64,000 nt of DNA, taken from the IMG/VR virus record IMGVR_UViG_2885360797_000005, one strand, 5' to 3'. Below, in pieces: positions 11,007 through 33,991 of this stretch. The first letter of the stretch is position 1. Each line of letters opens with the position of its first letter. This DNA is from a virus (lineage: Duplodnaviria > Caudoviricetes). A program made the translations under genes and the position numbers. The notes below the pieces were generated by a model. That model was not told where the DNA came from. It saw only the letters and a program-made list of their open reading frames with translations, and did not search any database.

Positions 11007-11031
11007 TGTAATTGGTATATTATGGACGGTG

Positions 11032-11074
11032 CAAAGATAACACTCTGCATCGTCCACAATCATTTAACTATTGC
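11032..11074 (-). promoter_or_regulatory. Putative late promoter for the portal gene
   Basis: Minus strand GCAATAGTTAAATGATTG-N17-TATCTTTG; overlaps an imperfect inverted repeat at 11024-11055. Confidence 0.55.
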
Positions 11075-14000: not shown

Positions 14001-17000
14001 CACGAGCCATCACCGGGACGCGCTCCACATAGTCAGCCCCGTCTCTGAATCTCACATCTTCGTCTCCGTCAAATGTCGGATTCTCAAAAGTTTTTATTAC
14101 CTTTGCAACATCTTCCAAGTCAAGATAGTCAACGTCAGCGAGAATCGTTCGCTGTTTGTCTATTAAGGCTTGGATTTTTTGTTTGTCTGCATAAAGCAGC
14201 TTCCCTTGCGAAATCCAGTTCAGCCATTCGGCGTTGTGCTTGGGGAATACATTTCTTACGCTGTTTATCTCCAGCGCTTTGCCATTGACAATCGGATTTA
14301 GGGAAAGTCCTACGATAAATTGCTTGCCATTGCTTTCAATTCCCACAATAATATTCTGCATCTTCCCCTTGTTGCCGTAGGCGAATACTGCCATAGGGGT
14401 CTGCAGTTCCTTCACAAGATTCCGTATCTCCGCCAAATCAAAATCATGCCCATATTCGGTTGCTTTGGCACGTAGTCTTGTGGCAGACATCTGAATAGGC
14501 AGATTGGGAACACCGGTGGAGCGTAAAATGTTACTTGGCATTCCTAACTGATAAATATGGCCGTCAGGAAGATTCCCATCAACCTGCCGCTGTAATTCTT
14601 TATTGAAACGATTGTTGGCGTCCTCAATTTTGGCAGATTCGCTCAACATAGCCTCGCCCCATCCCGTACGGTGACGCATAACGGCATCCTCGGCATCGGC
14701 GAACACGCCGCCTTTGCCCTGTTTATCGCGCATATTCTTCCATGACTTGAAGAGGATATATGAAAGGTCTTTATCGTTGAGGCGTATGCTCTTGGCAATT
14801 TTTAAACCGCTCAGGAATTTGTCCAGGAACGATTGAACCTTTGCCTTGATTTTACCCCAGAGCGTCAGTTCGTCACGGCTCATCTTCTCAAAACCCTCGC
14901 TGCCGATACGACCGGCGAGATCTGCCATATATTCCTCAGTGGCTTCCTTGCGGAAATCCTTGCGCTTTGCTTCGGCCTCAACTCGCGCCTCTGCCATGTC
15001 GGTGTAGTAATTGGCGTTCACATCTTTCCCGGCTCGCTCGTGTGCCTGTGCCTTGCGAGTGCGCAGGCGGTCGGCTTCCTCGCTCACCATTCTGTCGGTC
15101 ATCTTGTCAATGACTTTGCGGATGGGATTTGAGGCATGGTCGTAAATCTCGCCGAGGAATTCATCGAAGCGTTCCTCTCCTACGAGCGCACGCAGGCCCT
15201 TGTGTCCTGCAACTTCATGGACAAACGTATTGTCCACATCGGCTACATTGACGTTGTTAGGCAGGACGATGACAACCTCATCATCCTTTGCGCTCCACCA
15301 GCCTTTGGCACGCCTCTCTCTGCGAGTGGGGAGTGCATCGGCCTCTTCCTGCGTCCTTACAATACGGACTGGGGTGTTGGCTCTTGCCGACAGGTCGGCG
15401 ACACGCGCTTCTTTGGCTTCGGTCGATGATTCGTAAGCGTCAAGGTAGGCGCGTGCCTTTTCAAGACCTGCGTCCCATTCGCCTGCGTTCACTCGATCGC
15501 GCAGCTCATTGAGCATGGGTATGTCGGCTTCTGCCACGCTTCCGCTGATGTCACCGAACTTTGCGCCACGTTTGGCGAGTTCGGCACGGAGCATCGGGGG
15601 AACGGCATTTATGGGGAACGTAATCTTTTGGTTGCCCACGCGCTCCATGATGAGGTCTGCAACCTCGCTCCACGGAACAATGCGCCCCGGCTTGAAATAG
15701 CGCGACAGCATGGTCTGAACCTTGGTGTCATCGCTCAACTGACCGTTGACGCTTCCGCTGTGCCAGTCCATAAGACCTACGGAATCCTTTGCGCCCTCGG
15801 CCTGATAGCCGCTCGTTTCCTCGCTTTCGGGATAGTAACCCTCGACAACAAGAAGTTCGGGTCGGTCGTAGGCGGCTGTGAACTGGTCGTTGAGCGGAGA
15901 GGTACGGATATGGAAATATGGATTGTAGGCCACATCCCCGGTGGTGCGTCCGTTACCCTGCACAAGGTCGGCTTTGCCGTTCTCCTTGCGCATACCCTCT
16001 TCGCTCTGCTCCCAACGGCTGAATATCATCGGCGCACGCCATTCTCCGTTCTGCTTGGCGGTCATGGGTGGCAATACGCCCATGTTCGCCCACTGCGAGT
16101 AGCGGTAGCCTTTCTTCAGCGGCTGTGCGTCAAGGAAGTCAAGCAGTTCACGCTCGGCGACAAGGCGATACTTATTGCCGTCCCCTGTGGTCGGGGTGTC
16201 AGTGCTGTCCTCATCGGTCAGAGTGATGTCCGAAGCGGTTTCTACCGATTTGTCAAGTTCGGCATACTTGGCTTCTTTCTCTGCCAATTCTTTCTTCATG
16301 GCTTCCTCATACTTGGCAAGACGCTCTTTGGCTTCTGCCAGTTCCTGCTTGTGTGGGAACTCACGGCCGTTGCGCTGTTCAAGTTGGGTTCGTTCCTCGG
16401 TGTAATGAGCGAGTTGCTGTTGACCCCTGCTAAGGAGTTCACGGCTCTCTCTGCCAGTCACAATGTCCTCGGCGATTTTCTGCATTATGTTCTTTAGACG
16501 GTTGCCCTTGATGGCTTGGTCTTTAATGCCGAGTTCCTCGCAGGAATATGTGACATTGCGCTCCGGCTCAAACGTCAGAGTACCCTGACCCTTGCTGTCA
16601 ACGGTTCGGCTGACGGTCGTTGTGACCTCAAATTTCAAGCCGTCAACATCGACCACAAGTTTACTGGTGTAGTTGTCAGCACCCTCACGGACATTCTCGG
16701 CCGCCTCGTTCATCTTGGCATTCTGCTCTTTGAAGAAATCATCCATAGCAGCCACGCTGTCGAATGTGAGTTTGCCGATGGTTATCTTCTTGATAGTGCC
16801 GTCGGGGAAGTGTGAACCGATTATTTCAAGGTTCTTGGTTTCAATCTCGATGCGGCGTTCAGCACCTTTGATGAAGCCCTCAACCTTTGGCAACTGGTTG
16901 TGAACATAAATCTGATCGAGGTCGTGACCTTTCTGCTTGGCGGTAAGATTACGAACCTCGCGCTCGGCTTGATTCTTCAGTATGGCATACTCACTGCCCG

Positions 17001-20000
17001 AAAGTTGCGCGGTCATGTCGCCGAAAGAATCTTCTTCCTCTTCCAGTACGCGGTTTTCCATTGAGTTCTGCATCATCTTTGAGCCGTTCATGATTGAATC
17101 GGCTATCGCGCCTTTGGTTTTAAGACGCTGATATGCGGTTACGTCAAGGCTGTCCTCAACACCGAAACGGATAATGCGGACCGGTATGTCCATATCCTTG
17201 TGCAGGTTGCCCTGTCGCAGGGCGCGTCCGTTGCGCTGTGTGTAGTCCATCGGGCGGTTGGGCGCGTCCACATGGATGAGGGTGTGCAGGCGTTCCTGTA
17301 TGTTCACGCCAGTACCGAGAGTAAAGGTTGAACCCATGATGACACGGATTTCACCTGCGTTGACTTTCTCGAAGATGTCCAGTTTCCTCTTGACAGTCAT
17401 ACCCGGCTTGATGACAACTATCTGCTCGGCAGGAACGCCCTCGGCTATGAGTTTCTTGCGAATGTCCTCATAGAGGTTGAATCCGCTCTGCTTATTCTGA
17501 TAGTTGTCGGAGAAGATTGCGACTGTGCCTTTGTATTTCTCGCTGTCGCGGAGTGAGCGCAAGGTTTCGCGCACGGTCGCATTGGTCTTGCTGTTGGGGT
17601 CATCTTCGGCGTTGGGAACGACAAGGCGCACGTCAACGGCGGCTGCCTTTGCAATGCCGTACATCGTGAGCGGAATATGGCTGTTCTCTTTCTTCTCCTT
17701 GCCAGTCATATTGTCGTAGCGGTCAAGTTCTGCCTTGACGTACTTCATGACACTGCGCATGGCGCGGGTTTGCGGCAGGTAGATGTCCTGTGGCTTACCG
17801 CCTTCCATATCGGGAATCTTGTCGCTTACACCGCCTGCCTCGCGTGTGAGGACAGTATCGGCGACACTGCTCCATATACGCACGAGTTCGGGCAGGTTCA
17901 CATATCCGGCGAAGCGGTTGTTCTCTTTGAACTTGCCGTTGGTCGAGAACTCTACCATCTGCGCGATGTTGCCGAAGTTGCGGACAAAATCGTCAAAGTA
18001 GTAGATGCCGTAGGATTTCATCGTGTCAACTGGCATGAGATAACGCATGAACGTCCATATCTCGGCGGCTGTGTTGGAGATAGGCGTACCAGTCGCAAAC
18101 ACTACGTTGCGTCCGTTATTGCGCTCCATGACAGCCTGCGCCTTTAGGAACACACCCTGCGACTTCTTGCTGTATGAGGGGTCAACGCCTTTCACACCGC
18201 GTTGCATGGCGGTGGCGAAGCCGAGGTGCTTGTATTCGTGGGCCTCGTCCACAAGTATGGCGTCAATGCCCATATCGTCAAAGTTCTCCACATCGTCAAC
18301 CTCGCGGTCGAGCATTTCCAGTGCGCGAACCTCGGCGTTCTGACGAGTGGTGGCCTCGCGCTTCTCATCGCGTTTCTTCTTCTTGCCCTGCATGGTTTCG
18401 GTCAGTTCGGCAAGTCGCGCTTCCTGCTCGGCAAGTTCCCTTTCGGCTTGGCGAACAATCAAACTGCGACCGTCTGAATCAGCCTCGCGCATGGCTTCAA
18501 GAACTTTCATCTTCTCTTCGATGATGTCCTTGACGTATGCCATTTCGCGCTCCTCGCTGTCGGGGATGCGCTCAAATACGGACTGGGGAACGACAATCAT
18601 GTCCCAGTCGTTGTACTTGATTTTAGCATAGAAGTTCTTGCGGCCCTCGGCTGTGCGGTCGGCTTCCTCAATCGTCAGCACCTTTGCATTTGGATAGATT
18701 TCCTTTGCGCTCTCCACAAACTGACCGACTGTCGCGTTCTGAACGACAATCATAGGCTTGCGTGCTGTGCCGAGTCTGCGCATTTCCATAGCCGTGGTGA
18801 TGAGTGTATAGGTCTTGCCAGTACCTACCTCATGTGCAAGCAGGATAGGTTCGGTAGTTCCTCTTACCACGGCTCTGCCTTGATGAGGACGCAGGGCAAA
18901 GGGATTGCCGTGCAGCTCGCTTACTTGACCGCCGAAGTGCTGGGGAACGAACTCGTCCGGGATAGACATAGGCACATAGTTGTTGAACTGGTCGTTGTAG
19001 GTTTGCTCGATGCGTGCCGACATTGCAGGGTCAGCCTGCATATGCTCACGCGCCCAGTCCTTGAACTCTGCGCGTATCTCGTCAACTTTGGTGCCGCACT
19101 CGGCGGTGGCCGCCTTGTCGGTTATCGTTTTGGTTGAGCCGTCATAGTGCTTCTCGGTCTTGCTGACGGTTATCTGCCTGTTGGTGATGGCGGCTTCAAT
19201 GAGTTCGTGACCCATGATTGTCTTGTCACACATCTTGCTGACAACAGCCATAGCGCGGTTCTTCTCGTTGAATGTACTCCACGGAGTTTTCATGAACCAT
19301 GTACCGCCTGCGTTGGTGAGAGTGACGCGCAGACCAGTCTTTTCAAACACGAAGTCCTCATATAGTTTCGGCTCGATCCACGATGAACCCAACGAGAACT
19401 CAATGAGGTGCGCAGGTATGGTCATCGGCATAACTCCCTCAAGAGCCTTGATATTCGCGTCATACCTGCCGTCAGCATTATTCTCCTGCGCAATATGCAA
19501 TTTCTCGCGCACATTTCCCGAAAGGTATTTGTACGATACCTCCATTGTGCCGGTCGACGGATTTTCAAAGCCGGGTCCGCTTGACACGATTTCGCGCTTC
19601 ACCTCCTCGGTCGGTTTGCCGAGGGCCTGGCCGATATATTCAACATCAACACCGCCACTCTTGTATAGGCTTGCGAGGATAGCGTCTTTGATGGTGGTAG
19701 GCTGTGGCTCTTTCTCGGTGTCAATAACTCGGTGGCTGAAGATGTCAGTCTTGCCGACCTTGACAACCTTGTTGCCCTTCTTATCGCCTTTCTCGGAATA
19801 AGTTTCCAGTGCAAGGATGCTTGAGAAGTCAACATCGTTGCGCAGGAATGAGATTGCGGTGTTCTTATGCAGGTTGCCGTAGGTGCGTGTGAATGTGTCA
19901 AAGGCGCGGTTCAACTCTTTCAGAAGAGGTGCAAGTCCCTCGTCACCCTCATTGCTCGACTGGTATTCAAGCACATCAGACAACGCTTTCTTGATAGCCG

Positions 20001-23000
20001 AGTATGCTTTGAAACACTCCGCTTTGGTGTGACCCTTGACCTTGTTTTTGTTCAGTCCGAGGGGAACAGCCTCGCCCATTCGTGCCATGCAGAGTTCGCC
20101 CTGCGAGTTCAGCACCATGCTTCCCTCCTTGACACCCTCGCCGAGTTGCTCATTGATTCGGGTTATCTCATCTTCGACTTTCGGCGCGGCTGTGGCTTCC
20201 TCTTCCATGTCGGCGAAACTGCTTGCCCATTCGGACAACATCTTCGACTGTTCCTTTTCCTTGACTGGGAAGAGGGCGCGACTGGTCGGGAAGCGTGTTT
20301 CACCACGCTCAAAGTTGAACATCATCTCGCCTGCCATATTCTCCGGATGTTCCGCAAAATATTTGTTGTACATCATGCTGTACTGCTTGATGACGGGAAT
20401 TTCCTGACCTTTGACCTTGCGAGTGTCGCCAGTATCATAGTCAGCCACGCGCACACCTATTGCATCCGTCACGTCTATGGCATTAGGTGAGGGCTTGCCG
20501 TTGACGCGCTTGCGCACAACGATGATGTCCGAGGTTGCCCCGGTGCCTCCGAATGTCTTGTTGTGCATACGGAAAGCACCTACAACGTCAGCATTACCCT
20601 CGCCGATAATCCAAAGGCGAAGTTCCTTTGAGTTGTCCATCGTGCCGCTTGACGTGATGAATATGCCAATACCGCCCTCGCGGAGTTTGCGGATATTCTT
20701 CGCAATGCAGAAATCGTGGATGTCATGGAATTTCTTGGAGAGGTCTTTGTCGCCTGTCTCGTCAAACACTTTCGCACCAGTTATGAAAGGCACGTTGGTA
20801 ATGGCGAGGTCAACGGTGCCGTTCTGCACTCGCGTTTTCTCAAAGCCTTGTATCTCCACCTTGGCATCCGGGTAGAGCAACGAGAGGATTCCGCCAGTGG
20901 TGCGGTCAATCTCAACGGCATGGATTGAGCTGCGCTCACTCATGTCGGTAGGCATAAGTCCGATGATATTGCCGATACCTGCTGACCCCTCAAGCACGTT
21001 GCCGCCCTTGAAGCCCATAGCGCGTGCTACATCCCACATGGTGTCTATGACCTCGGCAGGAGTGTAGTAAGCGGAACGGCGGCTGTCCACAGCGTCTTGA
21101 TAGCCGTCCTCGCCCAGTAGTTCTTTCAGACGTTTGGCAATCGGGTTCGGAGTATAGCCCTGCTCATTGAAAGCCTTGCCCAGTCCACCCCAACCGCTGA
21201 ACTTACGGAGTACGGCCATCTGTTCGGGTGTGGCGGTTTCGCCTGCGTCAAGCAGTCGCTTGGCAAGTTCGATCGCTTCCATATTGGCCTTGATGCGTGC
21301 GTCCTCGCCTTTGGGGGCATAGTCAACGCCACGCTCGGCATGGTTGTTGCGGACATTCTTCCGCTCCGATTCGGGGACCGGCTCAATTACTGGTTGGCTC
21401 TTAGGCTTTCGAGGTACGCCTGCGCCTCGCTCTCCGTCAGACATAGGATTGACGCTACTACGTCCACCCATTCCTCGTCCGTCAGTTCCTTTAACTTCAT
21501 TCCGTTGGCTCTCTCCCAACGGTTCATGCGATTGAGGTTCGTGTCCTCTTTCTCGCTCGGCAGTGCCGGGGCGAGGTTGTACGTCAGTTTCTTCATGATT
21601 GCTTGAGTTTTGAGTGTTATCGAATAGGCCGCCGAACAAATCTCCGACAGGTTGTTCCGGCTTCAAAGTTACATCTTTTTTGCGAGAACTTCGCTTCTTC
21701 TCCTGTGCGGCTCTTGCTACACGCTTTGCCTCGCCGAAGATTCCATCGGCAGGCTTGACGCGGCTCCAGTCTCCCTTTTCTGACATGACATCCTTGACAG
21801 CCTCAAAGATAGGCCCACCGTCAGTGTCAAAATCTTCTATCTTGACTTTCTCCCAATTGCCGTTGCCGTAACGGTCCCACATGACCTCATCGCCGACCTT
21901 GTAGCCGTTGTGAGTCACGTCTACTTTTCGCTCTTCGGCAAGCTGCGCTTCAACTTCGGGAGTGATGGTATATGGAGATTCGCCACGTTCTGCCATATCA
22001 GACCATTCATGCCAAAGCTCATCTACAGACTTTTCTTTAGGAAGATAGTCGCGTGTAATCTCTTTTACCCTGCGCAGAAAATCGGCATAGGTTGATTCAA
22101 CCGGGGCATACATATTGTAGCCCCAACGTTCCATACCGCTCCCATTCGGATTTTCCACCCGGTATAGTATCCGCTCAACGGCAAGATTGTCACCACGTCT
22201 ACGTGTGCCTCTTTCTGCAACTGGTTCAAGACCGATATAGATGGCGAGTATTCTTCCCTCGTTGAGAGGGAGATTTACAATTACGTCACCACCTGCCGGG
22301 GCGATGTTCGCTCTTACCGCAGTGCCTTTCTTGACTCTCTTGCGGCCGAGCGTGGTCGCACTCGTGACTTTAATGTCAATGCCGAGGTCGTTTACCAACT
22401 GCTTTGCAAGTTTTGTAGCATCTGCCACGGCTTTTTTCTCTGCTGTGAGCATATAGCCGTAACTCTCATGGAACTTTGAATCGTCCTCAACGGCTTCATA
22501 GTAGCCGAGGACTGCCAGTTGGTCGTTGATCTCGTCAAGTGTTTGGTCAATCAGTTCTGAGGCTCGGTTGAGTTCGCCTGCGTCTGCTGAAGTTTCTGCG
22601 ATACTTTCTGCCTCGCCTGCAACAGCCTCTGCTTTTTCTGCAAGAGCTGCTGTATCTGCTTCTGTCTGCTTGTCATTTTCTCTTCGGTTTTTGTTTCGGG
22701 TTTCGGTAAGTTCTTTCTGCGCCTGCGCGGATGCGGTTGAGGCTTTGCGCTCTTCCACAATCATAGCCGCCTGCGCGATTGGGTCAGCCTGCTTCTTGTC
22801 GAAGTTCTGCACGTCAAACGTGGCAACCTGCTCGGTCGGTGTAAAGGTATATTTGTCATAGCCGGGTGTCCAGCGTGCGCCCTCATAGAACGATTTGAGC
22901 CACGGACGTATCTTGTCGCCCAACAATCCCACCATCTTGGTGGCATAGTCGGGGAATGCCGTTGTGCCTCGCTCGATAAGACCCATAGCAAGACGGATGC

Positions 23001-26000
23001 CTGCGGACTGGATGCGCTGACGCTCCTGCGCTGTCAGTTCGCCGGGGTCGCGGAACTTGATGTTGGTGTCGCCCTCGTCATCGCCTATGCCCAACAGGTC
23101 GCGCAACTCGTCAGCCAAAGACTTCATTTCGTCATCGCTGATTTCGTGCTGTTGCTCCGGCTCTGCCTTGACTGGTTCGGCGTGGTCGCTCAACTTGGTT
23201 TCTCCTTTGGTCGACAGGTCGGTCATCACATCTTCAAGGCTGACGCGGTTGATAGGTGCTTTCTTCGGCTTCCGTGCAGGCTTCTTCTCCGCAGGAGCCG
23301 CAGGAGCGACAGCCTCACGGAGTTCCTCGGCGGTCATTGGCTGTGCGTCCGCAACCGCTTCTTCGTTGCCAATCATCTCGGCGAGTTGGCGTGCGGCTTC
23401 CTCACTGCGCATCATGTAACCGCCCTGCTTGCGGTCATACCAACCGCGAGAGGTTTTCTTACCCTCGGTGAGAGGCTCACGCGCGAATGTGTCAAGAGCC
23501 GCCTTTTGCTCGGCGGTCAGTTCGCGGTTGAACTTGACAAGGTGAACATCGCTCGTCTTGCCTTTCTTGTTGGTGTAGGTTGTCGGCGTAATGGTGTACG
23601 GTTCAGAACTTTCCGCGCTCTCCGTTTGTTTATCTGCTGACAAAGTATTAACTTTGCGGTCAGAAGGCGAGTCGAGCGTAGGGCCGGAAAGGGCACCGGC
23701 CTCCTCCGAAGATTCGGAGGGCAGTATGAGGGATTGCCCGTCCTCACGCTCTTTCCCCTTAACATTATTGTCGGACGTAGGAACAAGGTCCGGTCCCTCC
23801 GATTCACTCGGAGCCTCGGTTAAGTACCTTTCAGAACTGGGGGACAAACTTTCAGAGAGATGTAGAATTTTACCATTCTGCATCTCTTTCTTTATTGCTT
23901 TACCCTCGGCTTCATGGCTGCTTATTGATACCTCCATGCCGTCACGCTGAACGGTTACAGATTCAAAATGCACAAGACGGCTTCCATCGGATTTGATGAA
24001 CGTCTTTACAAACAGATATTTGCTGTCTCGCTCTGCACCTTCAGCAGGTGCGTTTTTCTCAATGATGACATCGGGAGTGTTGAGTGTAGGATGTATCATG
24101 CTGAAATACTCTGTCCTTTTCAGTGAGTAGAGTTTCAGCAACTGGTTTGCACCCATCTTGACAATGCCTATGGGAGTTTCAACAGTGCCGTCCTCTCCGA
24201 ACTGGGCAATCCAGTTTTCGGGCGTGAGTTCAATTGAGGGAGCGACTTCGGCGGTTGCTTCCATTCGTGCAATCAACTCCGTTGCTTCCTGCTCGGTGAG
24301 TGAGCGTCCAATCATGCCGTTGCCCTCAATAGCCTTGACGCTCTTGTACTCGGCAAAGGGCTTGGTCTTACGTCTGCTCGACTGAATCCACTTCTTGAAC
24401 TCTTCCTTGCTGACGTGGGTAATCGCGCCGAGACCGGTCCAACCCGGCTCATAGTTGGAGAGGTATGCGTAACGCGCGGCCTGCTCCGTGGGGAAGCCGT
24501 ACATAACCTTATGCTCGTCAAACGAGCCGTCCTCGTTCACTTGGTCAACGACAAACACATCGCCCTCTTCGGGAGTGTCGGAAAGGAACACGTCAATGTG
24601 GTCGCCGTCCACGCCCTCAGTCCCACGGATATATCCGTAGTCGTTCTGCATGGTAGTTTCCCACGGCTTGCCGTCCGCTCCAGTACCTCGGCGTACACTA
24701 CCTTTGGCGTTCTCAATGCTGACGTTGTAGCCGTCAACCTTGCGATGTTCCATCTTGTAGTTGCCTGCGGCTTTCTGCGCCTCAGTCGGTTCGGACTGCA
24801 TACCTCCGTCAACCTTTAGCTCGGCGGACGGATGTCCATCAATATACTGGGCAATCTCGGCGATGTCGCCAAAACGCTTGCCGTCAAATTCAAAGTATGA
24901 GCCTGTGTAGTGTCCGTCCTCATTGGGTGCGTCAACTTGCGTAACTATGTGAGTGCCGTCAATGATGATTTCACACTTATAAGTGGGCTTGTCACTGTCA
25001 CCCTCTTCCCAGTCGTTTTCAGTAATCTCAACACGGGCCGCGAGTGCCTGCTCTTCGGGAGTCAGTTCCTCGCGAGTGCCTGCTACTGGCTGTTGAGGCT
25101 CTGCACTGCGTTCAACATCATTCGGAGTTTGTTCACTTTCTTGGTCTCGTCCAAGCTGTTCTGCTTCTGCTCTGCGCTTGCGTTCCGCAATGGCAGCTTC
25201 CACGAGTGCCTGCTGTTCTTTGGGGGTTGCATTTCTGAAATGTTCGTTTACATTGGTGAGTATTTCTTCTTTTGAGGGGATCGAGCCTGAAAACATGTCA
25301 AGTTGACCGCCCGAAGCTTGTGCAGCCTCGTTGTTGTATGAGGTCAGCACCTTGCGCAGGTCGCTCGGCTTACCGCTGTTGAGAATGTCTGCAAGCAGGA
25401 GTGCGGTCGCGTCAGTCACACGGCTGTCTCCAAACTCATCATCAAACAATCCCTGCATACGTCCGAAGGGCGACACTGGCATTCCATCGGTATATACGTC
25501 CGGCATAGCGGCCTTGGCGCGAGTAACAAGGTCTACAGCCTTTGCAAGTTCCTCGCTGATGTCGTAGCCGTTTCGGGCAAGAGTGCGGTTATTGGCAATC
25601 TCATTCAATCCCATAACGATTGACTGGCGAAGTGTCGGCATAGAGATTATCTGACGCACTGCATCGGGCGAGGTTTGGAACACCTTGCCGATAAGAGTGT
25701 TTTCGATAAGTTCCTTTCCTGCGGCCGACAACGCCGTGCCTGTCCGCAGTTCGGGCATCTGCATATCGTTGATGACTCCTGCCTGCATGAGTGCGCCCAG
25801 TGCGTGAGCTACGGCTTTCTCGTCAGCATAGTAGTCCGAGAGGCGGTCGTAACGGCTGATGTCGTTGACAATGACGTTGAACACATTGTCGGGGACAATC
25901 TTTCCGAGTTTCACGGCGGCTTCGGGCTTGCCCTGCGATTTCTTCTCCTGCGCGTTGAACCGAGCAAAGGTTGTGGCATCGTAAGGAAGAGCCTCGTCCG

Positions 26001-29000
26001 GCACGAACACCACGCGCGGATTCTTCATACTTGCCACCTGCTCCGGGGTAAAGCCGTATTTCTTGTGTCCGAACTGCGCGAGGTAGTCATTGTATGCCCT
26101 ATCTGTGCCTTGACGCGCTGCGAGGTCGCCCGACATGGTGCGATTGTTGCCCGACAGCACCACGCCGTCCTTGCTCACTATTACTGGGTCTTGCAGGGCG
26201 CGGTTGTCATAGTTGCCTGCCATACCCTCAACTTTCTGCTGTGCGTCCTTATCACGCTGATAGTCGCGGTCGTTGACGCTTTGGCCGTTCTCATCAATCG
26301 GGAAACCCTCGGTGGGTGCATAAGCATTGTTCACATCATGGCTCGGCGAGGCGGCTCCTGCCTCGGTCAGAATGTATCTGCCGGAGATAGTAGAGCCGTC
26401 GGGCAGGGTCAGAGCGTCCTCGTTACCCTCCACCTTAGGAGCGGACTCCCAACGCTCGCGTATCTTCGGATTGACGGCATGAACGCCGATGCGCTCCTGC
26501 TCGGCCTGCTTCTCTGCCTTGATGCGCTGTTCCTCTTCAAATCGGGCGACAGCCTTATCATGGGCGATTGCGTCACGCTGACGGCGTTCCTCTTCCTGCT
26601 GACGGCGCAGCTCGGCTTTGCGCGTGTTGTGGACGGCAACAATGCCGTTCCATGCGTCAATGCGTGCCTGCGCCTCGGCAATCTGCTGATTGTACAGGGC
26701 GAGGTCGTTCTGATACTGCTCGGCTGCCTTGCGCTTGGCTTCTGCCATGGCCATGGGCGAACCTTTCAGTTTGGGGGCCTTCATTGTCGGCGGCTTCTTA
26801 TTGAGAGCTTCGAGGTCGGCGGTCGCCTGCTGAACCTGCGCCAAAGCGATTTCAACGGCATCATCCTCACCGCCGACAGCCTCAACAAGACCATCCCAGG
26901 CCGTTTCCTTATCCACGGCTTCAAAACTCGGCTCTCCTTTCTCGTTGAGAGGAATGCGCGAGAGTGCGGTCTGCTGTCCGTTTTCTACACTTGGGACCGT
27001 TTCGGGCGCGGTTTCTGCGTCTGAAACTGGGTTTTCCGTAGGATTGGGAACGCTTTCGGGCATTTCGGGAACGCTCTGCGCTTCCATAGCCCTGTTCTGC
27101 TGTTCGTATTCGTAAGCCTCAAGCAGACCACGTCCGAAGTCAGTCAGACGGTTGGAATCGGCGCGGAGGTTCTCAATCTCGGCGTTTAGTTTGACATCAT
27201 CGAAATTCTTTGCATCGTTCAGTCCGCTTTCATAGCCTCGGTCATACGCCTCGGTGTCGGCGGTCGCAGGTGCTTCCGCTTCGGGCTGGGCAAATGGGTC
27301 TATATCGTCCTGCTGTGGCTCTTCTCCCTCGGCAGATTCTTCGGGGGCAACGGCATTGTCGCCAAAGATATTCATCTGCTCCTGCTCGATCACCGACAAA
27401 GCGGTGTCCAGTTCGTCCTGCGGATTGACAGCCTCGGACACTTTGAAGATTTGGTCGGGGGATGTAAACTGATATTCCCCGGTCTGCGCGTCCATGACAA
27501 CGACACTCTCCGAAGAGTTGTGTACGTCAACGGCTGTGCCATCGGGGAACATTACAACATCACCCTTGACAATATAGACCGGTCGGTCATCCACTTTCAT
27601 GGTGGCAGGAATAATCACGCCATTGTCCTTGTGGGTGCGCTTGGCAACACTTTCCTCAACCTCGGCACGCTTGCGGTCGGCAACCTCGTTGGATGCGTCC
27701 ATAACGCCGTCAAGAGCCGCCTTCGCATTGATGTAGTAGAGGACAGCGTCTTTCTGCTCAATAGTCAGTTCGGGGTCATTGACCAACGCCCACGGATTTT
27801 CATTCACATGGAACATATAGTATTCGGCTTCAGAACCGAAAGCGTCCTCAACCGCTTGGTATGCTTCCTGCATACGCAGGGCGATAGCGTCCACGTCTGC
27901 CTGCACGGTCGGGTCGCCCTCTTCAAAGCGTCCGAACAACTCACGGCCCTGCTCATATTGGCTTTGCGCCTCTGCCTGCTCCGCAGTAGGCTCTGCGGCC
28001 TGCTGACGTACCTCTTCGGGAAAGAGCCGTTCAAGATACGTCTTGACGGCATCCTGCTCCGCTTTGGTGCGCTTGCTTGGCATCTTGCGCAGGACTGCAT
28101 CTACATCAATGCCAGTTTCCTCTTTCAGAGCCTCGCGGATTGCTTCGGGGCGATAGCGGTCGGCAATGTCGCGGTTGCGCTCCATAGCATCATCAAGGAA
28201 CTCAACCAACTGCTTCTGTGATTCGGTCACGTCCTTGTTACCGGCCTTGACTTCGCGATAGATTCTCTTGATGGTTGCAGGGTCGGCACCGGGCGACACC
28301 TCGCTGATAGCGGCATCAAGCACCATGTCATCGGCAACGGCCTCCTTGTACCGCTCACCAACGTCCACCGAGTTGAGTTCTGCCTGACGCATGATGTTGT
28401 CGGTTTCCTGCTTGGCTTCCTGCTCGTTCTTGAACGTGCGACTGGTAACGACCTCGCCATTGGCGGCTATGGAGTTGACGGTCACACGTCCGTCAGCGTC
28501 CGTGTTGGTGGTGTAACCAGTAACGGAAGCCATCGGAAGTCTGCGCCCAGTAAGTATGTAGTAGGCTTTTGCGCGTGCGGACTGGCTCACATTGCCGTCC
28601 TGCATGAGTTCTTCCATTGAGGAATAGCCGTCAAATTCGGGATTACGGCTGATTGTTTCAGCCTCAACGCGCTCTGCTCTCAACTCAATCGCTCCCTCGG
28701 TAGGGTTTGGTTGAGATACTTCCTGCACTCGGTCACGGCTGAACAGGTCGGCGAGTTCGCCATAGCCTGCCCTGCGCAGCTCTTCGCGCTCATCGGTGGT
28801 AAACCGCATTGCCTCTGCTACACGTCCGGCATCGTCAGCCCCTGTGAGATTGTTTATGTTGGCAGGGTCAAGAGCCTTGCGGATTCTCTCCTCGAAGTCC
28901 ATGCGGTTGTGGTTGCGCTCTGCCTGCGTCAGCGGTCGGCCGTTGACTGGCTTGACTGGGCGCAAACTGGCGATAACTCGCGGTGCGCTCTTGAGTCCGT

Positions 29001-30909
29001 GCTGTGCCTTGAAGCCTAACATCATCGCCATATTGTCAGTCCACACGTCCATTGCATCGGCATCGCCGTTTATCCATTCGGGAACGGAGAATATTGTACC
29101 CTCGGCAAGGGTCGATACTGCAACCTCGCCGAGGCGCACGCCTGCCTTGCCTGCTGTGGAGGTGGTTGCCTTGACAGTTTTGTCAGCGACATTGCCGATG
29201 ACTGGCGACAATGTGCCAGTCACGCTACCGAGTATGAGGCCATGACCGCCTGCGCTCAACACCGCTCCTGCTGAATAGCCCTCGTTCTCTCCAGTTTCGG
29301 GGTTGATGTGACCGCCGTGCAGGAACTGGCTCTCGCCCTCTTTCAGCATTTCGTATGTGGCGAAGTTGCCACCGCCTGCGGCTGCCCCGGTGATGATACG
29401 ACCAGTTAGCGAGGACGAGAAGAGGCGTGAGCCTACCTGCGTACTCATTGACGTGGCGGCTCTGCCTGCTACGATACGACCGCCGATGTTGATTGCTCCT
29501 TTGCCTGCGAGTGAGCCGACACCGCCCGACACCCATGTCACGGGGTCAACCGCCATGCCAGTAACGGTGCCTGCAATCTGTGCCACGTAGTGATTCTTGC
29601 CGTACTCGCCCATAGCGGCCTCGTAAGCTGCAAGGTCGCCACTCGTTCCTGCTTGGCTTCGGGCAAGACCTTTGCTGATTGAGTTAATCACGTTCATGTC
29701 GGCGACTATCCGACCGAAGTATTCCAATGTGCTTTTGGGCGTGTTCTGCTGAACGGCATACTGATACACGGCATTGTCGGTCAACTGGCGTGCCATCTGC
29801 GATGCGGTTGTCTGCAATTCCTCTTCGGATGCGTCAGGATATTGCTGACGCAGGCGGTTGTAGCAGTTGGCGGTAACCTTTGAGCCTGCACGCGCCCACG
29901 CATTGTCCATCATCTTCTGAAGGTCAAAGCGTGTCATGTGGGAAATATTATCGGCATGGCGGTTCATAGACGTTGTAACGATACGCATTTCACGTCCACC
30001 GCCCATAGCCGCATAATTGCTCCATTCGCGGTCGGCATTGCGCTCTTTGTCTGCCTTGTGCTTTTCCTCGGCTTCCTGCCAAAGTTCTGCTACGGCATCA
30101 TAGGCAGGAGCCTGTGCGTCATACTGCGCCTGCATTTCAACATCTTCGGGCTTGGCAGGGTCAAGTCCATTCTGCTTCATGCGGTTCTCGAACTGGTGGC
30201 GCAGGCGATTTTTACGAGCGGTATCCTCGGCGCGGTCAGCCGCGAACTGGCTTGTGGTCAGACTGCCATCGGGCATGAGCCACTGGGTTACTGGCTTGCC
30301 GTCAACATACTCCACTCCATAAGGCTGTGGCGAACCGCCGTCATAAATTTGACCAGATGGAACATTAAGACCCAATCCTGCGGTCGTTTTAGTCCCTGCG
30401 AGTTGTGCTTGGAACTTTTTGGCGGCTCTCTTCTTCCTGCCCTCGGGTGTGAACGGCTCGGTCATGCGCTGAACCTGCGCGATGCGTGCCTTTGACTTCT
30501 GATTGAAGTCGTTGAGCATTGTGTGAATCTGATACGACATCCGTATCTTATCCTGCTCGGTGGGATGCCATGCAGCCTGTTCGGGTTGAGACTGGACCGG
30601 TGCCTGCTCTTGCTCTTCCGCAGTTGCCGAAGCAGGTACGGAAGTAGGGGCTGCGGTCGCGGCAGGTTGAGCCTGCTGTTGTGGTGTCGGGGCGGTGGGC
30701 GCAGGCGCAGGTGTAGGTGCGCCAAATCCGATATTGCTCTCAAAGTCGGCGAACGGTTCCATGTTGTAGCCGTCAGCAACAAGAGCGTCATAAGCGGCTT
30801 TGCGCTTCTTGGGGTCTTTGAGGTTCTCGCGGAACTGCGCCTCTGGCTCCATCGCATAGCCGTTCTTGACAAATGCGTTATATAGATTGGTTACTTTATC
30901 TTCTGCCAT
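11068..30909 (-). CDS. Giant DarB-like polyvalent virion protein (6613 aa)
   Basis: Approximate domains by motif: DdrB/ParB-like (~26430-25300, VLSGNNR); inorganic pyrophosphatase-like (~24790-24330, DGDHIDVF, FDEHK); PBECR-like RNase (~24270-23860); adenine MTase (~21330-20250, FSGWGG, LEGSAGIG, NVPF); SNF2 helicase (~18900-17100, HEVGTGKT, DEAH, TGTP, QRNGR); zincin (~15360-14720, HEVAGH); MuF-C-like RNase (~14620-14180); LPD38-like C-terminus. Confidence 0.88.
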   Translation of the reverse strand: MAEDKVTNLYNAFVKNGYAMEPEAQFRENLKDPKKRKAAYDALVADGYNMEPFADFESNIGFGAPTPAPAPTAPTPQQQAQPAATAAPTSVPASATAEEQEQAPVQSQPEQAAWHPTEQDKIRMSYQIHTMLNDFNQKSKARIAQVQRMTEPFTPEGRKKRAAKKFQAQLAGTKTTAGLGLNVPSGQIYDGGSPQPYGVEYVDGKPVTQWLMPDGSLTTSQFAADRAEDTARKNRLRHQFENRMKQNGLDPAKPEDVEMQAQYDAQAPAYDAVAELWQEAEEKHKADKERNADREWSNYAAMGGGREMRIVTTSMNRHADNISHMTRFDLQKMMDNAWARAGSKVTANCYNRLRQQYPDASEEELQTTASQMARQLTDNAVYQYAVQQNTPKSTLEYFGRIVADMNVINSISKGLARSQAGTSGDLAAYEAAMGEYGKNHYVAQIAGTVTGMAVDPVTWVSGGVGSLAGKGAINIGGRIVAGRAATSMSTQVGSRLFSSSLTGRIITGAAAGGGNFATYEMLKEGESQFLHGGHINPETGENEGYSAGAVLSAGGHGLILGSVTGTLSPVIGNVADKTVKATTSTAGKAGVRLGEVAVSTLAEGTIFSVPEWINGDADAMDVWTDNMAMMLGFKAQHGLKSAPRVIASLRPVKPVNGRPLTQAERNHNRMDFEERIRKALDPANINNLTGADDAGRVAEAMRFTTDEREELRRAGYGELADLFSRDRVQEVSQPNPTEGAIELRAERVEAETISRNPEFDGYSSMEELMQDGNVSQSARAKAYYILTGRRLPMASVTGYTTNTDADGRVTVNSIAANGEVVTSRTFKNEQEAKQETDNIMRQAELNSVDVGERYKEAVADDMVLDAAISEVSPGADPATIKRIYREVKAGNKDVTESQKQLVEFLDDAMERNRDIADRYRPEAIREALKEETGIDVDAVLRKMPSKRTKAEQDAVKTYLERLFPEEVRQQAAEPTAEQAEAQSQYEQGRELFGRFEEGDPTVQADVDAIALRMQEAYQAVEDAFGSEAEYYMFHVNENPWALVNDPELTIEQKDAVLYYINAKAALDGVMDASNEVADRKRAEVEESVAKRTHKDNGVIIPATMKVDDRPVYIVKGDVVMFPDGTAVDVHNSSESVVVMDAQTGEYQFTSPDQIFKVSEAVNPQDELDTALSVIEQEQMNIFGDNAVAPEESAEGEEPQQDDIDPFAQPEAEAPATADTEAYDRGYESGLNDAKNFDDVKLNAEIENLRADSNRLTDFGRGLLEAYEYEQQNRAMEAQSVPEMPESVPNPTENPVSDAETAPETVPSVENGQQTALSRIPLNEKGEPSFEAVDKETAWDGLVEAVGGEDDAVEIALAQVQQATADLEALNKKPPTMKAPKLKGSPMAMAEAKRKAAEQYQNDLALYNQQIAEAQARIDAWNGIVAVHNTRKAELRRQQEEERRQRDAIAHDKAVARFEEEQRIKAEKQAEQERIGVHAVNPKIRERWESAPKVEGNEDALTLPDGSTISGRYILTEAGAASPSHDVNNAYAPTEGFPIDENGQSVNDRDYQRDKDAQQKVEGMAGNYDNRALQDPVIVSKDGVVLSGNNRTMSGDLAARQGTDRAYNDYLAQFGHKKYGFTPEQVASMKNPRVVFVPDEALPYDATTFARFNAQEKKSQGKPEAAVKLGKIVPDNVFNVIVNDISRYDRLSDYYADEKAVAHALGALMQAGVINDMQMPELRTGTALSAAGKELIENTLIGKVFQTSPDAVRQIISMPTLRQSIVMGLNEIANNRTLARNGYDISEELAKAVDLVTRAKAAMPDVYTDGMPVSPFGRMQGLFDDEFGDSRVTDATALLLADILNSGKPSDLRKVLTSYNNEAAQASGGQLDMFSGSIPSKEEILTNVNEHFRNATPKEQQALVEAAIAERKRRAEAEQLGRDQESEQTPNDVERSAEPQQPVAGTREELTPEEQALAARVEITENDWEEGDSDKPTYKCEIIIDGTHIVTQVDAPNEDGHYTGSYFEFDGKRFGDIAEIAQYIDGHPSAELKVDGGMQSEPTEAQKAAGNYKMEHRKVDGYNVSIENAKGSVRRGTGADGKPWETTMQNDYGYIRGTEGVDGDHIDVFLSDTPEEGDVFVVDQVNEDGSFDEHKVMYGFPTEQAARYAYLSNYEPGWTGLGAITHVSKEEFKKWIQSSRRKTKPFAEYKSVKAIEGNGMIGRSLTEQEATELIARMEATAEVAPSIELTPENWIAQFGEDGTVETPIGIVKMGANQLLKLYSLKRTEYFSMIHPTLNTPDVIIEKNAPAEGAERDSKYLFVKTFIKSDGSRLVHFESVTVQRDGMEVSISSHEAEGKAIKKEMQNGKILHLSESLSPSSERYLTEAPSESEGPDLVPTSDNNVKGKEREDGQSLILPSESSEEAGALSGPTLDSPSDRKVNTLSADKQTESAESSEPYTITPTTYTNKKGKTSDVHLVKFNRELTAEQKAALDTFAREPLTEGKKTSRGWYDRKQGGYMMRSEEAARQLAEMIGNEEAVADAQPMTAEELREAVAPAAPAEKKPARKPKKAPINRVSLEDVMTDLSTKGETKLSDHAEPVKAEPEQQHEISDDEMKSLADELRDLLGIGDDEGDTNIKFRDPGELTAQERQRIQSAGIRLAMGLIERGTTAFPDYATKMVGLLGDKIRPWLKSFYEGARWTPGYDKYTFTPTEQVATFDVQNFDKKQADPIAQAAMIVEERKASTASAQAQKELTETRNKNRRENDKQTEADTAALAEKAEAVAGEAESIAETSADAGELNRASELIDQTLDEINDQLAVLGYYEAVEDDSKFHESYGYMLTAEKKAVADATKLAKQLVNDLGIDIKVTSATTLGRKRVKKGTAVRANIAPAGGDVIVNLPLNEGRILAIYIGLEPVAERGTRRRGDNLAVERILYRVENPNGSGMERWGYNMYAPVESTYADFLRRVKEITRDYLPKEKSVDELWHEWSDMAERGESPYTITPEVEAQLAEERKVDVTHNGYKVGDEVMWDRYGNGNWEKVKIEDFDTDGGPIFEAVKDVMSEKGDWSRVKPADGIFGEAKRVARAAQEKKRSSRKKDVTLKPEQPVGDLFGGLFDNTQNSSNHEETDVQPRPGTAERERGHEPQSHEPLGESQRNEVKGTDGRGMGGRSSVNPMSDGERGAGVPRKPKSQPVIEPVPESERKNVRNNHAERGVDYAPKGEDARIKANMEAIELAKRLLDAGETATPEQMAVLRKFSGWGGLGKAFNEQGYTPNPIAKRLKELLGEDGYQDAVDSRRSAYYTPAEVIDTMWDVARAMGFKGGNVLEGSAGIGNIIGLMPTDMSERSSIHAVEIDRTTGGILSLLYPDAKVEIQGFEKTRVQNGTVDLAITNVPFITGAKVFDETGDKDLSKKFHDIHDFCIAKNIRKLREGGIGIFITSSGTMDNSKELRLWIIGEGNADVVGAFRMHNKTFGGTGATSDIIVVRKRVNGKPSPNAIDVTDAIGVRVADYDTGDTRKVKGQEIPVIKQYSMMYNKYFAEHPENMAGEMMFNFERGETRFPTSRALFPVKEKEQSKMLSEWASSFADMEEEATAAPKVEDEITRINEQLGEGVKEGSMVLNSQGELCMARMGEAVPLGLNKNKVKGHTKAECFKAYSAIKKALSDVLEYQSSNEGDEGLAPLLKELNRAFDTFTRTYGNLHKNTAISFLRNDVDFSSILALETYSEKGDKKGNKVVKVGKTDIFSHRVIDTEKEPQPTTIKDAILASLYKSGGVDVEYIGQALGKPTEEVKREIVSSGPGFENPSTGTMEVSYKYLSGNVREKLHIAQENNADGRYDANIKALEGVMPMTIPAHLIEFSLGSSWIEPKLYEDFVFEKTGLRVTLTNAGGTWFMKTPWSTFNEKNRAMAVVSKMCDKTIMGHELIEAAITNRQITVSKTEKHYDGSTKTITDKAATAECGTKVDEIRAEFKDWAREHMQADPAMSARIEQTYNDQFNNYVPMSIPDEFVPQHFGGQVSELHGNPFALRPHQGRAVVRGTTEPILLAHEVGTGKTYTLITTAMEMRRLGTARKPMIVVQNATVGQFVESAKEIYPNAKVLTIEEADRTAEGRKNFYAKIKYNDWDMIVVPQSVFERIPDSEEREMAYVKDIIEEKMKVLEAMREADSDGRSLIVRQAERELAEQEARLAELTETMQGKKKKRDEKREATTRQNAEVRALEMLDREVDDVENFDDMGIDAILVDEAHEYKHLGFATAMQRGVKGVDPSYSKKSQGVFLKAQAVMERNNGRNVVFATGTPISNTAAEIWTFMRYLMPVDTMKSYGIYYFDDFVRNFGNIAQMVEFSTNGKFKENNRFAGYVNLPELVRIWSSVADTVLTREAGGVSDKIPDMEGGKPQDIYLPQTRAMRSVMKYVKAELDRYDNMTGKEKKENSHIPLTMYGIAKAAAVDVRLVVPNAEDDPNSKTNATVRETLRSLRDSEKYKGTVAIFSDNYQNKQSGFNLYEDIRKKLIAEGVPAEQIVVIKPGMTVKRKLDIFEKVNAGEIRVIMGSTFTLGTGVNIQERLHTLIHVDAPNRPMDYTQRNGRALRQGNLHKDMDIPVRIIRFGVEDSLDVTAYQRLKTKGAIADSIMNGSKMMQNSMENRVLEEEEDSFGDMTAQLSGSEYAILKNQAEREVRNLTAKQKGHDLDQIYVHNQLPKVEGFIKGAERRIEIETKNLEIIGSHFPDGTIKKITIGKLTFDSVAAMDDFFKEQNAKMNEAAENVREGADNYTSKLVVDVDGLKFEVTTTVSRTVDSKGQGTLTFEPERNVTYSCEELGIKDQAIKGNRLKNIMQKIAEDIVTGRESRELLSRGQQQLAHYTEERTQLEQRNGREFPHKQELAEAKERLAKYEEAMKKELAEKEAKYAELDKSVETASDITLTDEDSTDTPTTGDGNKYRLVAERELLDFLDAQPLKKGYRYSQWANMGVLPPMTAKQNGEWRAPMIFSRWEQSEEGMRKENGKADLVQGNGRTTGDVAYNPYFHIRTSPLNDQFTAAYDRPELLVVEGYYPESEETSGYQAEGAKDSVGLMDWHSGSVNGQLSDDTKVQTMLSRYFKPGRIVPWSEVADLIMERVGNQKITFPINAVPPMLRAELAKRGAKFGDISGSVAEADIPMLNELRDRVNAGEWDAGLEKARAYLDAYESSTEAKEARVADLSARANTPVRIVRTQEEADALPTRRERRAKGWWSAKDDEVVIVLPNNVNVADVDNTFVHEVAGHKGLRALVGEERFDEFLGEIYDHASNPIRKVIDKMTDRMVSEEADRLRTRKAQAHERAGKDVNANYYTDMAEARVEAEAKRKDFRKEATEEYMADLAGRIGSEGFEKMSRDELTLWGKIKAKVQSFLDKFLSGLKIAKSIRLNDKDLSYILFKSWKNMRDKQGKGGVFADAEDAVMRHRTGWGEAMLSESAKIEDANNRFNKELQRQVDGNLPDGHIYQLGMPSNILRSTGVPNLPIQMSATRLRAKATEYGHDFDLAEIRNLVKELQTPMAVFAYGNKGKMQNIIVGIESNGKQFIVGLSLNPIVNGKALEINSVRNVFPKHNAEWLNWISQGKLLYADKQKIQALIDKQRTILADVDYLDLEDVAKVIKTFENPTFDGDEDVRFRDGADYVERVPVMARAMYEKQIQSSMYQFTEAMQDSMRGLMEFYKAVESQGAKRDIEDVSSFENAYIAENLMSSKSHAEMDEYEHRILRPLLDIAARMSGDKRGREELLDYMMAKHGLERNAYMRNEAIANGEESERDFAGLCGLTGETDWQNAEIVAQQMVDDYEAAHSTDIPALWSAVNKATKTSLQKIYNCGLISKAQYEKIRDMYNFYIPLQGFDEKTSDDVYGYLTSKKGAFSSPIKKAEGRKSKADDPLATIAYMAQNSIIQGNRNVMKQKFLTYVQNHPSDLASVNKLWLVHDEITDTWKPVFADVDENMTPDEIDKVVMDFEERMESLSQSEPDKYKRGRDAIGIPYRIVDGNIKEHQVVVKRNGESYVITINGNPRAAQAVNGLTNPDNDLNGAIGKVFNIASTVNRELSQLYTTRNPDFVVSNFIRDLIYSNTMVHVKENQGYAMRFHKNHAKVNPIRMVELLHLYEANKLDMRNPMHRMFYEFMHWGGETGYTLQRNLEQEKKLVSKIMKEARRGQLNPMSILGLIGNNLDQINRAVENSARFAAFITSREVGRDVQRSAYDAKEISVNFNKKGAGSKFMDATGQTFAGKAAGFTSGLGRSFYVFWNAAIQGTANFGKAFRKHPVKSITAATSLLLLGYIMALLADDGDDEDKNGYYNVPKYTRRSNLMFRFGEQWLTIPLPVEYRAIYGLGELAYSVTSGREEYSDAELAKETASQLSQLLPLDFMEGGGGLHAFVPSAFKPMVETATNTSWTGLPIYKNTPFNKNMPEWTKAYPRTNTQLVELSRWANEASGGNNYAAGWANFNPAQLEYLLNGYFGGYSNVINKMVKTGETMLGEREYDPSSILLVNRLVKMGDERTAEKKINSDFFKYLEEYRRTHTLLRKYEDEAERGSDRYSIFLDALKHSRDGARHDVMDEYITDYNWLNRATKDSEIADEERATYEEEMRRLKREVVSLMKVAHDSVQVNKMKERFAEEYIQQ
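14098..14181 (+). ncRNA. Putative antisense hairpin sRNA with promoter motif, nested at the end of the MuF-C-like domain
   Basis: TACCTTTG (14098-14105), then hairpin TCCAAGTC/GGCTTGGA, GATAGTCAA/TTGTCTATT, CAGCGA-GAATCGT-TCGCTG, then T6. Confidence 0.55.
21387..21596 (-). CDS. Overprinted 69-aa ORF in an alternative frame of the giant gene
   Basis: A-rich leader AAAACTCAAGCAATC-ATG; protein looks helical and globular while the host frame is a disordered linker. Confidence 0.55.
   Translation of the reverse strand: MKKLTYNLAPALPSEKEDTNLNRMNRWERANGMKLKELTDEEWVDVVASILCLTESEAQAYLESLRANQ
23625..23850 (+). ncRNA. Putative antisense structured RNA (two cloverleaf-like units) with consensus promoter, nested at the end of the PBECR-like domain
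   Basis: TTTG-N20-TAACTTTG (23625-23656); multi-hairpin units at 23674-23751 and 23769-23846. Confidence 0.55.
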
Positions 30910-33763: not shown

Positions 33764-33991
33764 ATGAATAGAAACTACAACTCAATCAAGGCTCTTGTTG
33801 GCGTAACCAACATCATCATCACTTCCGAACTTAGATACTCGGAGTTGCACGCCCTCGTTGAAAAATCTGCTGTCCTCGAAAATGGCATTCTCACAATCAA
33901 GGTCAAGGAATGCACCCTCGGCACTGAAGAGATAAACGCCCTTGCAAAACTGGGAGGAAAATATGTCGCATTTGATTTGACCGAATGCTAA
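33764..33991 (+). CDS. Small hypothetical (moron-like) protein, 75 aa
   Basis: Own -7 element TATCTTTG at 33729 and A-rich leader; convergent with the integrase. Confidence 0.65.
   Translation: MNRNYNSIKALVGVTNIIITSELRYSELHALVEKSAVLENGILTIKVKECTLGTEEINALAKLGGKYVAFDLTEC

Follow-up and report, generated by a model that had tools for sequence, protein, structure and literature searches.

A probable small-RNA gene nested antisense in the giant polyvalent-protein gene of a Muribaculaceae prophage

The OOP RNA of phage lambda is a simple hairpin RNA of 77 nt directed against the small cII gene, the prophage type I antitoxin RNAs of RalA/RalR, SR4/bsrG and Sok/hok act on toxins that are small, separate genes, and in the type III system ToxI/ToxN the RNA ToxI is made of tandem 36-nt repeats, which precede the toxin on its own strand and which the toxin processes. 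These systems were compared with positions 23625–23899 (+) of a 64,000-nt stretch of DNA, referred to below as the window, from the Caudoviricetes record IMGVR_UViG_2885360797_000005. Judged from the sequence, this segment is very probably a small-RNA gene that is nested antisense in the gene of a giant polyvalent protein, in the linker behind a PBECR2 domain, and it has all the sequence features of such a gene, namely a host-type promoter, a body of ~234 nt and an intrinsic terminator.

As with OOP, the predicted RNA is short, encoded by a phage and equipped with a promoter and an intrinsic terminator of its own, and it is the complement of an internal or 3′ stretch of the opposite gene's message. 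It differs from OOP in its length (~234 nt in the window and ~150 nt in most relatives) and its covarying four-way junction, and also in lying wholly within the linker of a 20-kb open reading frame (ORF) and travelling with one protein-domain module. Since promoter and terminator both lie opposite the giant gene, the RNA would be fully complementary to the giant message by position, as a cis-antisense RNA. With the type I antitoxin RNAs it shares the arrangement of a cis-encoded, structured antisense RNA that overlaps the coding region of a toxic product on a prophage, whereas the candidate toxin here is one domain of a 6613-aa virion protein and not a small separate gene. A folded RNA proposed to neutralise an endoribonuclease would also recall the type III pairs, and a first-pass annotation, made by a model from the letters alone, had suggested a type III-like layout; however, the present RNA is on the opposite strand inside the ORF, its core is not repeated in the window, and neither tandem repeats nor any direct-repeat family were found at the site. 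The tRNA decoy suggested in the same annotation fared no better. Unit 2, the second of the two folded units of the RNA, resembles a tRNA in having four helices round one junction, in cloverleaf order and in ~80 nt, but it is without junction linker bases, T- and D-loop signatures and a 7-nt anticodon-type loop; the loop in the anticodon position varies among relatives, ARAGORN detected 0 tRNA genes at the locus, and neither ARAGORN nor Rfam recognised the unit, so the likeness is one of cloverleaf topology only.

Protein-guided searches gave 78 viral and 34 genomic loci, and a DNA pattern search gave 25 metagenomic loci (individual loci are cited below by L numbers). The unit shows one layout, in which promoter, fold and terminator lie antisense in the linker after a polyvalent-protein domain and are conserved with that domain. 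The covariation of Unit 2, assessed in an alignment of 31 sequences (25 distinct), provides the strongest evidence. Its helices are P1 (UUGUC/GACAA, 5 bp), P2 (GGAC/GUCC, 4 bp, plus GGA/UCC, 3 bp), P3 (CUCCGA/UCGGAG, 6 bp) and P4 (CCUCGGUU/AACUGGGG, 8 bp), and 98.3% of the alignment cells are paired. Eight pairs show double-sided change against 2.9 ± 0.9 in shuffles (0 of 500 as good), and in slid controls, where the partners are moved by 1–3 columns, the pairing falls to 29–63%. Among the compensations, pair 10-33 has turned from G-C into A-U in four lineages and pair 51-79 from C-G into U-A in seven, and an A-U pair at the foot of P3 has become C-G; in P4 of L127 a Pro-to-Phe change on one strand is met by a silent Glu change opposite, which keeps the pairing. 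The divergent L011 and L152 (47–48 bits) keep P1, P2, P3 and the inner half of P4 with differing sequences, and only their three outer P4 pairs are unpaired. As the relatives keep the shape through matching base changes, this appears to be a real RNA, and the comparison indicates that selection acts on the RNA itself, beyond the overlapping protein.

Compensatory substitutions in homologous tails had been named in advance as a check on the first-pass annotation, and those of Unit 2 bear out both the closing stem and the two arms that it had described. The AAGGT/ACCTT loop-loop pair that it had added is not sustained, since the loop varies among relatives (P3 loops are 3–7 nt, differing in length and sequence), and the fourth helix, GGAC/GUCC with its inner GGA/UCC, was absent from its description. 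An alternative P2 (CGGAC/GUCCG with an 11-nt loop) was rejected, since GGAC/GUCC shows the G-C to A-U change in four lineages and two double changes in L090. The hairpins were also considered as a by-product of coding, and this was rejected because Ser-Glu codon pairs cover only part of P3 and account neither for P1, P2, P4 and the terminator nor for the G-U bias reported below.

When nine representatives (57–87% protein identity) are aligned by codon over 4 kb, the longest stretch of invariant nucleotides also falls inside the linker, spanning 34 nt (23768–23801) and including synonymous sites. It is unchanged in eight of the nine, L011 being the exception, and is followed in length by stretches of 22 and 11 nt. 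Elsewhere the most distant pairs reach a codon identity of just ~0.55 at conserved residues, suggesting that something besides the protein constrains the DNA. Recent gene conversion was rejected as the origin of the invariant 34-mer, for the block is invariant in eight of nine representatives while both flanks diverge. In addition, Unit 2 keeps invariant unpaired bases and conserved loop ends.

The predicted transcript ends in a terminator hairpin that was absent from the first-pass description and completes the layout of promoter, body and terminator. Its 15-bp hairpin is paired in 95.8% of the cells, with four compensatory pairs, 45 G-U cells and 0 A-C cells, against 36–56% pairing in slid controls; almost every member has a U-tract behind the hairpin, in most relatives a run of 6–7 T. 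The strand was read from two measures, as the (+) strand has 92 G-U pairs against 3 A-C pairs (read from the mRNA strand, these would be G-U), and the covariance model R1 scores 105.7 bits on the (+) and 16.3 on the (−) strand, indicating that the folded strand is the one antisense to the giant ORF. The predicted fold of 23662–23900 reaches −93.2 kcal/mol on the (+) strand (z −4.1, 0 of 200 shuffles as good) and −83.6 kcal/mol on the (−) strand (z −2.6), the (+) strand thus being better by ~10 kcal/mol.

A Bacteroidetes housekeeping promoter was taken to have a −7 box TAnnTTTG and a −33 TTTG 19–21 nt upstream. The window carries both at 23625–23656, after PBECR2, with a spacer of 20 nt between TTTG and TAACTTTG, just as the first-pass annotation had described. 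The window contains one copy of the strict TTTG-N20-box pattern, with 0.82 expected, which is the level of chance, and the case for the promoter therefore rests on its conservation in relatives. The −7 box is kept in 24 of 31 relatives, and of the 24 distinct relatives listed, 22 have TTG at a distance of exactly 20 nt upstream from TAnnTTTG, the divergent L090, L128, L130 and L136 among them. Beneath the −33 element, Gln is encoded by CAA in all relatives whose codons were read, and the variation seen in the −7 box concerns its two free bases ('nn'), so that the protein has V, D, G or I there. In a second family of units, found at the tails of LPD13 domains, the −7 box is present in 19 of 21 units with TTG at 19–20 nt in 17 of those 19; four sequences have the box in another codon phase and over other residues, three of them with TTG 19–20 nt upstream. 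The promoter is conserved at the DNA level, not merely by way of the protein. Usual Bacteroides promoter spacing puts the start ~5–8 nt after the −7 box, and the start predicted in this way agrees with the beginning of the closing stem in the LPD13-tail family. The −7 motif, which Muribaculaceae use (bioRxiv 10.64898/2026.10.27.762397), is enriched across the window as a whole (61 matches against 39 expected).

Unit 1 has another origin than Unit 2. Positions 23673–23750 are missing from most PBECR2 relatives, and in L012 and L091 the peptide and DNA of Unit 1 are the C-terminal tail of an LPD13 domain (Pfam), placed ahead of the Unit 2 peptide; the window sequence does not differ from the LPD13 tail of L012/L153 until a breakpoint that lies directly past the last helix. 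Twenty LPD13 homologs (44–61% identity) carry an antisense unit of their own, made up of a −7 box, a closing stem of 15 bp that begins ~8 nt downstream of it, inner helices and a U-tract, and 13 of the 22 predicted pairs in this family show a compensatory change. Since Unit 1 is identical to LPD13 tails and the LPD13 body is gone from the window, the window RNA appears to be a chimera; read from the sequence, its order is a promoter, an LPD13-type junction without its own terminator, a PBECR2-type junction and a terminator. The first-pass annotation had taken the two units as a pair serving PBECR2, which does not agree with a Unit 1 that is the remnant of a deleted LPD13 module and absent from most relatives. 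Its common opening of the two units, GTCGRRCGTAGG, is real, as they share the first dozen bases and the architecture, though Unit 1 scores just 7.5 bits against R1. Within Unit 1, folding bears out the closing stem GAGCGT/ACGCTC and two of the arms, GGCCGG/CCGGCC and CCTCCGA/TCGGAGG, the arm GCAGT/ATTGC is not supported, and the pairing GAGG/CCTC is kept in the family as a helix and not as the loop pair that had been proposed.

Table 1. Positions of the antisense RNA units, of the giant gene and of other genes in the window.
Feature	Position	Strand	Basis or remark
−33 element TTTG of Bacteroidetes-type promoter	23625–23628	+	
−7 box TAACTTTG	23649–23656	+	consensus TAnnTTTG
Predicted transcription start	23662	+	inferred position, ~5–8 nt past −7 box
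Unit 1, four-way junction from LPD13 domain tail	23664–23761	+	LPD13 body and original 3′ stem/U-tract deleted
Unit 2, 80-nt four-way junction	23768–23847	+	covariation, covariance model R1
Intrinsic terminator, 15-bp hairpin (23854–23889) and U-rich tail	23854–23899	+	opposite last PBECR2 residues
MuF_C-tail antisense unit: box TACCTTTG, 21-pair hairpin, T6 tract	14098–14185	+	
Gene of 6613-aa polyvalent protein, one ORF	11068–30909	−	RNA gene on its antisense strand
PBECR2 domain, residues 2233–2349	23893–24213	−	Pfam PF18810; adjoined and partly overlapped by RNA gene
Terminase gene	6916–9036		
Portal gene	9054–11063		
Integrase	33988–35481		
Repressor-like gene	36004–36465		

The promoter-plus-junction cassette shifts among different neighbouring domains. 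The near-invariant junction follows PBECR2 domains that are just 45–55% identical to each other and also follows LPD13, and it occurs without an adjoining PBECR2 in L012, L091 and L127. The last of these, 7918–8065 (+) on the metagenome contig Ga0065708_1039971, is a stand-alone copy with box, junction and terminator in non-coding DNA, in which the old frame is broken by a 4-nt deletion in the P3 loop and the predicted fold is retained (z −3.3). A fragment of an LPD13-type unit lies after this junction copy, at 8085–8150, and the units of L127 adjoin a different polyvalent ORF of 2187 aa with PBECR3, ART, LPD3 and LPD13. The R1 unit is present in one copy in the genome of the window and has a match in one of 150 other Muribaculaceae genomes; a relative (L081) is carried by the cultured Duncaniella muris DSM 103720. 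It was not found in the cultured Bacteroides phage BKO1-TP3, and PBECR2 relatives of the L018 type are without it, so the unit is not universal among PBECR2 tails. The best match of the region in Rfam 15 is to a plant-virus element at 18.9 bits (E 4.2), against a gathering score of 80, five related loci gave no Rfam match at E up to 1, and a literature search found no description of the RNA.

PBECR2 and MuF-C are PBECR domains (PMC5512222), and the tails of PBECR2, LPD13 and MuF-C each carry an RNA family of their own. A simple scan of the giant gene for a box, a strong hairpin and a T-run gave two sites only, at the PBECR2 and the MuF_C tails. The MuF_C-tail hairpin is kept in eight homologs from Bacteroidales genomes with ten compensatory pairs, five of the eight having the box, and MuF-C tail homologs were found in these genomes only, none in viral contigs or phage records. 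The third family, LPD13, is a Pfam domain without an assigned function, and its AlphaFold model (predicted local distance difference test, pLDDT, 79.9) has two helices and a four-stranded sheet. The top rows of VIA-align for this model were CdiA-CT (Z 6.0), BrnT (5.1), colicin D (4.6) and RelE/ParE (3.5–4.1), all below the caution line of Z 8, Foldseek gave nothing at E up to 0.001, and hhalign placed LPD13 against PBECR2 weakly (E 0.012, probability 3.5%). From the modelled fold, LPD13 may be an unrecognised relative of the PBECR domains, and the three families seen here with units are probably BECR-type or nearly so. The association of RNA families with domain families is partly forced, because the terminator overlaps the coding end of the domain. 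In L014/L015, a distant PBECR2 relative without the R1 junction has an antisense TACCTTTG in the region of the PBECR2 tail, followed by a 10-bp long-range stem and a T-run, and this element may represent a further RNA family.

The main claim of the first-pass annotation, that an antisense gene for a structured RNA, with its own promoter, lies behind a BECR-type domain, is thus backed at the sequence level by covariation, G-U bias and DNA-level conservation of the promoter. As to its role, the reading that we favour, as a guess from analogy and held with somewhat less than even confidence, is an OOP-like or type-I-like antisense check on the module or on the giant gene, which the antisense position, the host-type promoter and the temperate lifestyle fit. 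Host RNA polymerase would make the RNA in the lysogen or at an early stage of infection, when the late giant gene is not expressed, and the RNA, travelling with the adjoining BECR-type RNase module, would serve as a check on it. The likeliest route would be pairing with the complementary stretch of the giant mRNA, by which cleavage would be triggered or synthesis blocked, and the targets would be the leaky transcripts of the phage itself together with those of related superinfecting phages that share the invariant core.

Several points weigh against such a check. A pure cis-antisense RNA needs no invariant sequence, because its complement changes along with it, and the 34-nt invariant core and elaborate junction hint at a partner in trans, either a protein or an RNA. 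In addition, a strong constitutive antisense promoter would oppose the late expression that the phage needs, and a site so far from the start of the gene is a strange choice for silencing a 20-kb message. The window's own terminator tail is interrupted (UUUCUUUAUU), many of the aligned sequences are closely related, and some of the set was retrieved by means of the conserved core itself.

The first-pass annotation had instead proposed an antidote akin to type III systems, in which the folded RNA would bind the BECR-type RNase and block it in the producing or lysogenic cell; the injected nuclease would then be active in a newly infected cell, which is without the RNA, and orphan units would guard against the nucleases of other phages. 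In favour of such antidotes, three BECR-type or BECR-like domain families have units at their tails, with a different RNA family in each case, and the elaborate junction with its invariant unpaired bases would suit recognition by a protein. The orphan copies (Unit 1 in the window, Unit 2 in L012 and the stand-alone L127) resemble orphan immunity genes, and late synthesis of the protein would be compatible with an inhibitor and not with a silencer. Even so, we consider the antidote unlikely. The P3 loop, in an anticodon-like position, is variable and no tRNA features were found, the near-invariant junction stands behind PBECR2 domains of only 45–55% identity and behind LPD13 alike, and the layout is unlike every known type III pair; moreover, the link between RNA and domain family is partly imposed by the terminator overlap, and the BECR assignment of LPD13 comes from a Z of at most 6.0 and an hhalign probability of 3.5%. 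The wider proposal that each BECR-type module of polyvalent proteins has a private RNA antidote gene overprinted on its linker, with module and RNA shuffled together, is doubtful.

A small RNA that acts in trans or binds a protein could also have come to lie here incidentally, linkers being free space for overprinting, with host or phage mRNAs, a host factor or immunity as possible tasks. The invariant core of 34 nt and the conserved loop ends exceed what self-complementarity would need, the L127 copy stands outside any ORF, and the cassette moves between different neighbouring domains, all of which would agree with an incidental position. Against it, sites complementary to the conserved loop number 3 elsewhere in the window where 3.6 are expected, none of them beyond chance, the family is rare (1 of 150 other Muribaculaceae genomes), and three RNA families that all stand behind BECR-type domains are hard to call incidental, so we rate this reading, too, as improbable. 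That there is no functional RNA, and that the helices are DNA-level features, such as recombination or template-switch quasi-palindromes that aid the shuffling of domains at linkers, or by-products of the linker motif beside a chance promoter, could draw on the chance-level count of the strict promoter pattern, the self-complementary Ser-Glu codons (TCC GAx, TCG GAx) that account for part of P3, the clustering of mosaic breakpoints by the cassette and the conservation of the linker peptide itself, but is very unlikely in view of a 92:3 G-U/A-C bias unexpected for double-stranded or template-switch palindromes, radical amino-acid changes that accompany pair-preserving ones (as in L127), a promoter kept in another reading frame, a U-tract after the hairpin in nearly all members and a structure retained in non-coding L127.

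With selection on an RNA, the conserved 'linker motif' of polyvalent proteins would mostly reflect a promoter and a folded RNA encoded opposite to it, so that both such linkers and the conservation of synonymous sites in giant phage genes call for another interpretation. The predicted RNases of polyvalent proteins are without a known immunity partner, and a module-linked RNA offers a testable answer as to how these RNases are tolerated by the producing cell or lysogen. To our knowledge, few phage RNAs are known from Bacteroidales phages, and the present one adds a covariation-supported four-way-junction family that is not in Rfam. The nucleotide-conserved cassette may, from its sequence context, also provide homology where domains are exchanged, since it is located where mosaic blocks change and beside varying neighbours. 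Were the private-antidote reading true, the RNA would be the counterpart of the toxin-immunity gene pairs of polymorphic toxins, a lysogen could use orphan copies such as Unit 1 and L127 to render the weapons of rival phages harmless or silent, and the RNA genes would be homology islands for domain swaps, which would explain the conserved 'linker motifs'. With the cultured carrier Duncaniella muris DSM 103720 (L081) and the genetics recently reported for Muribaculaceae (bioRxiv 10.64898/2026.10.27.762397), the question is directly testable.

The phage of the window is a temperate Muribaculaceae prophage within a genome of 2.9 Mb, and its other genes are given in Table 1. The giant gene, flanked by the integrase and portal genes, fills a third of the phage genome, and its product is a polyvalent protein in the sense of Iyer et al. 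2017 (PMC5512222), with ddrB-ParB, InPase, PBECR2, SNF2-type helicase, MuF_C and LPD38 domains. PBECR2 scores 29.2–33.0 bits, over the gathering cut-off of 27.1. The protein opposite the RNA gene is a linker rich in Ser, Pro and Glu (residues about 2350–2430) directly after PBECR2, in agreement with the first-pass description; the stretch described here falls at residues about 2353–2428, and the RNA gene covers this linker together with the last 13 residues of PBECR2. No close relative of the C-terminal third of the window's giant gene was found in viral collections.

The giant genes are mosaic (window 22500–25500 compared with loci L002–L011), with blocks of ~100% codon identity alternating with blocks of ~45%, and the block changes cluster near the linker cassette. 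Long antisense ORFs are frequent across the giant gene (11068–30909, +), for instance one of 449 aa at 25675–27024, and a simple terminator scan of the gene placed 29 of 29 terminator-like sites on the (+) strand; both are effects of composition, and such scans are therefore uninformative alone. A (+) strand protein overprinted at the locus was considered and rejected: one (+) frame is open in 26 of 31 relatives, but five relatives have stops, the ATG lies upstream of the predicted start, and antisense ORFs abound in the giant gene. In L087, L088 and L129/L148, the giant ORF has frameshifts or stops right beside the RNA unit, L087 and L088 have a second, out-of-frame copy of the linker motif, and L088 has lost the −7 box. 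On the mRNA strand, the terminator U-tract is an A-rich run (window 23880–23900, −) immediately 5′ of a conserved in-frame ATG, the Met of K-K-E-M-Q-N, and this resembles a Bacteroidetes start context, which is probably a by-product.

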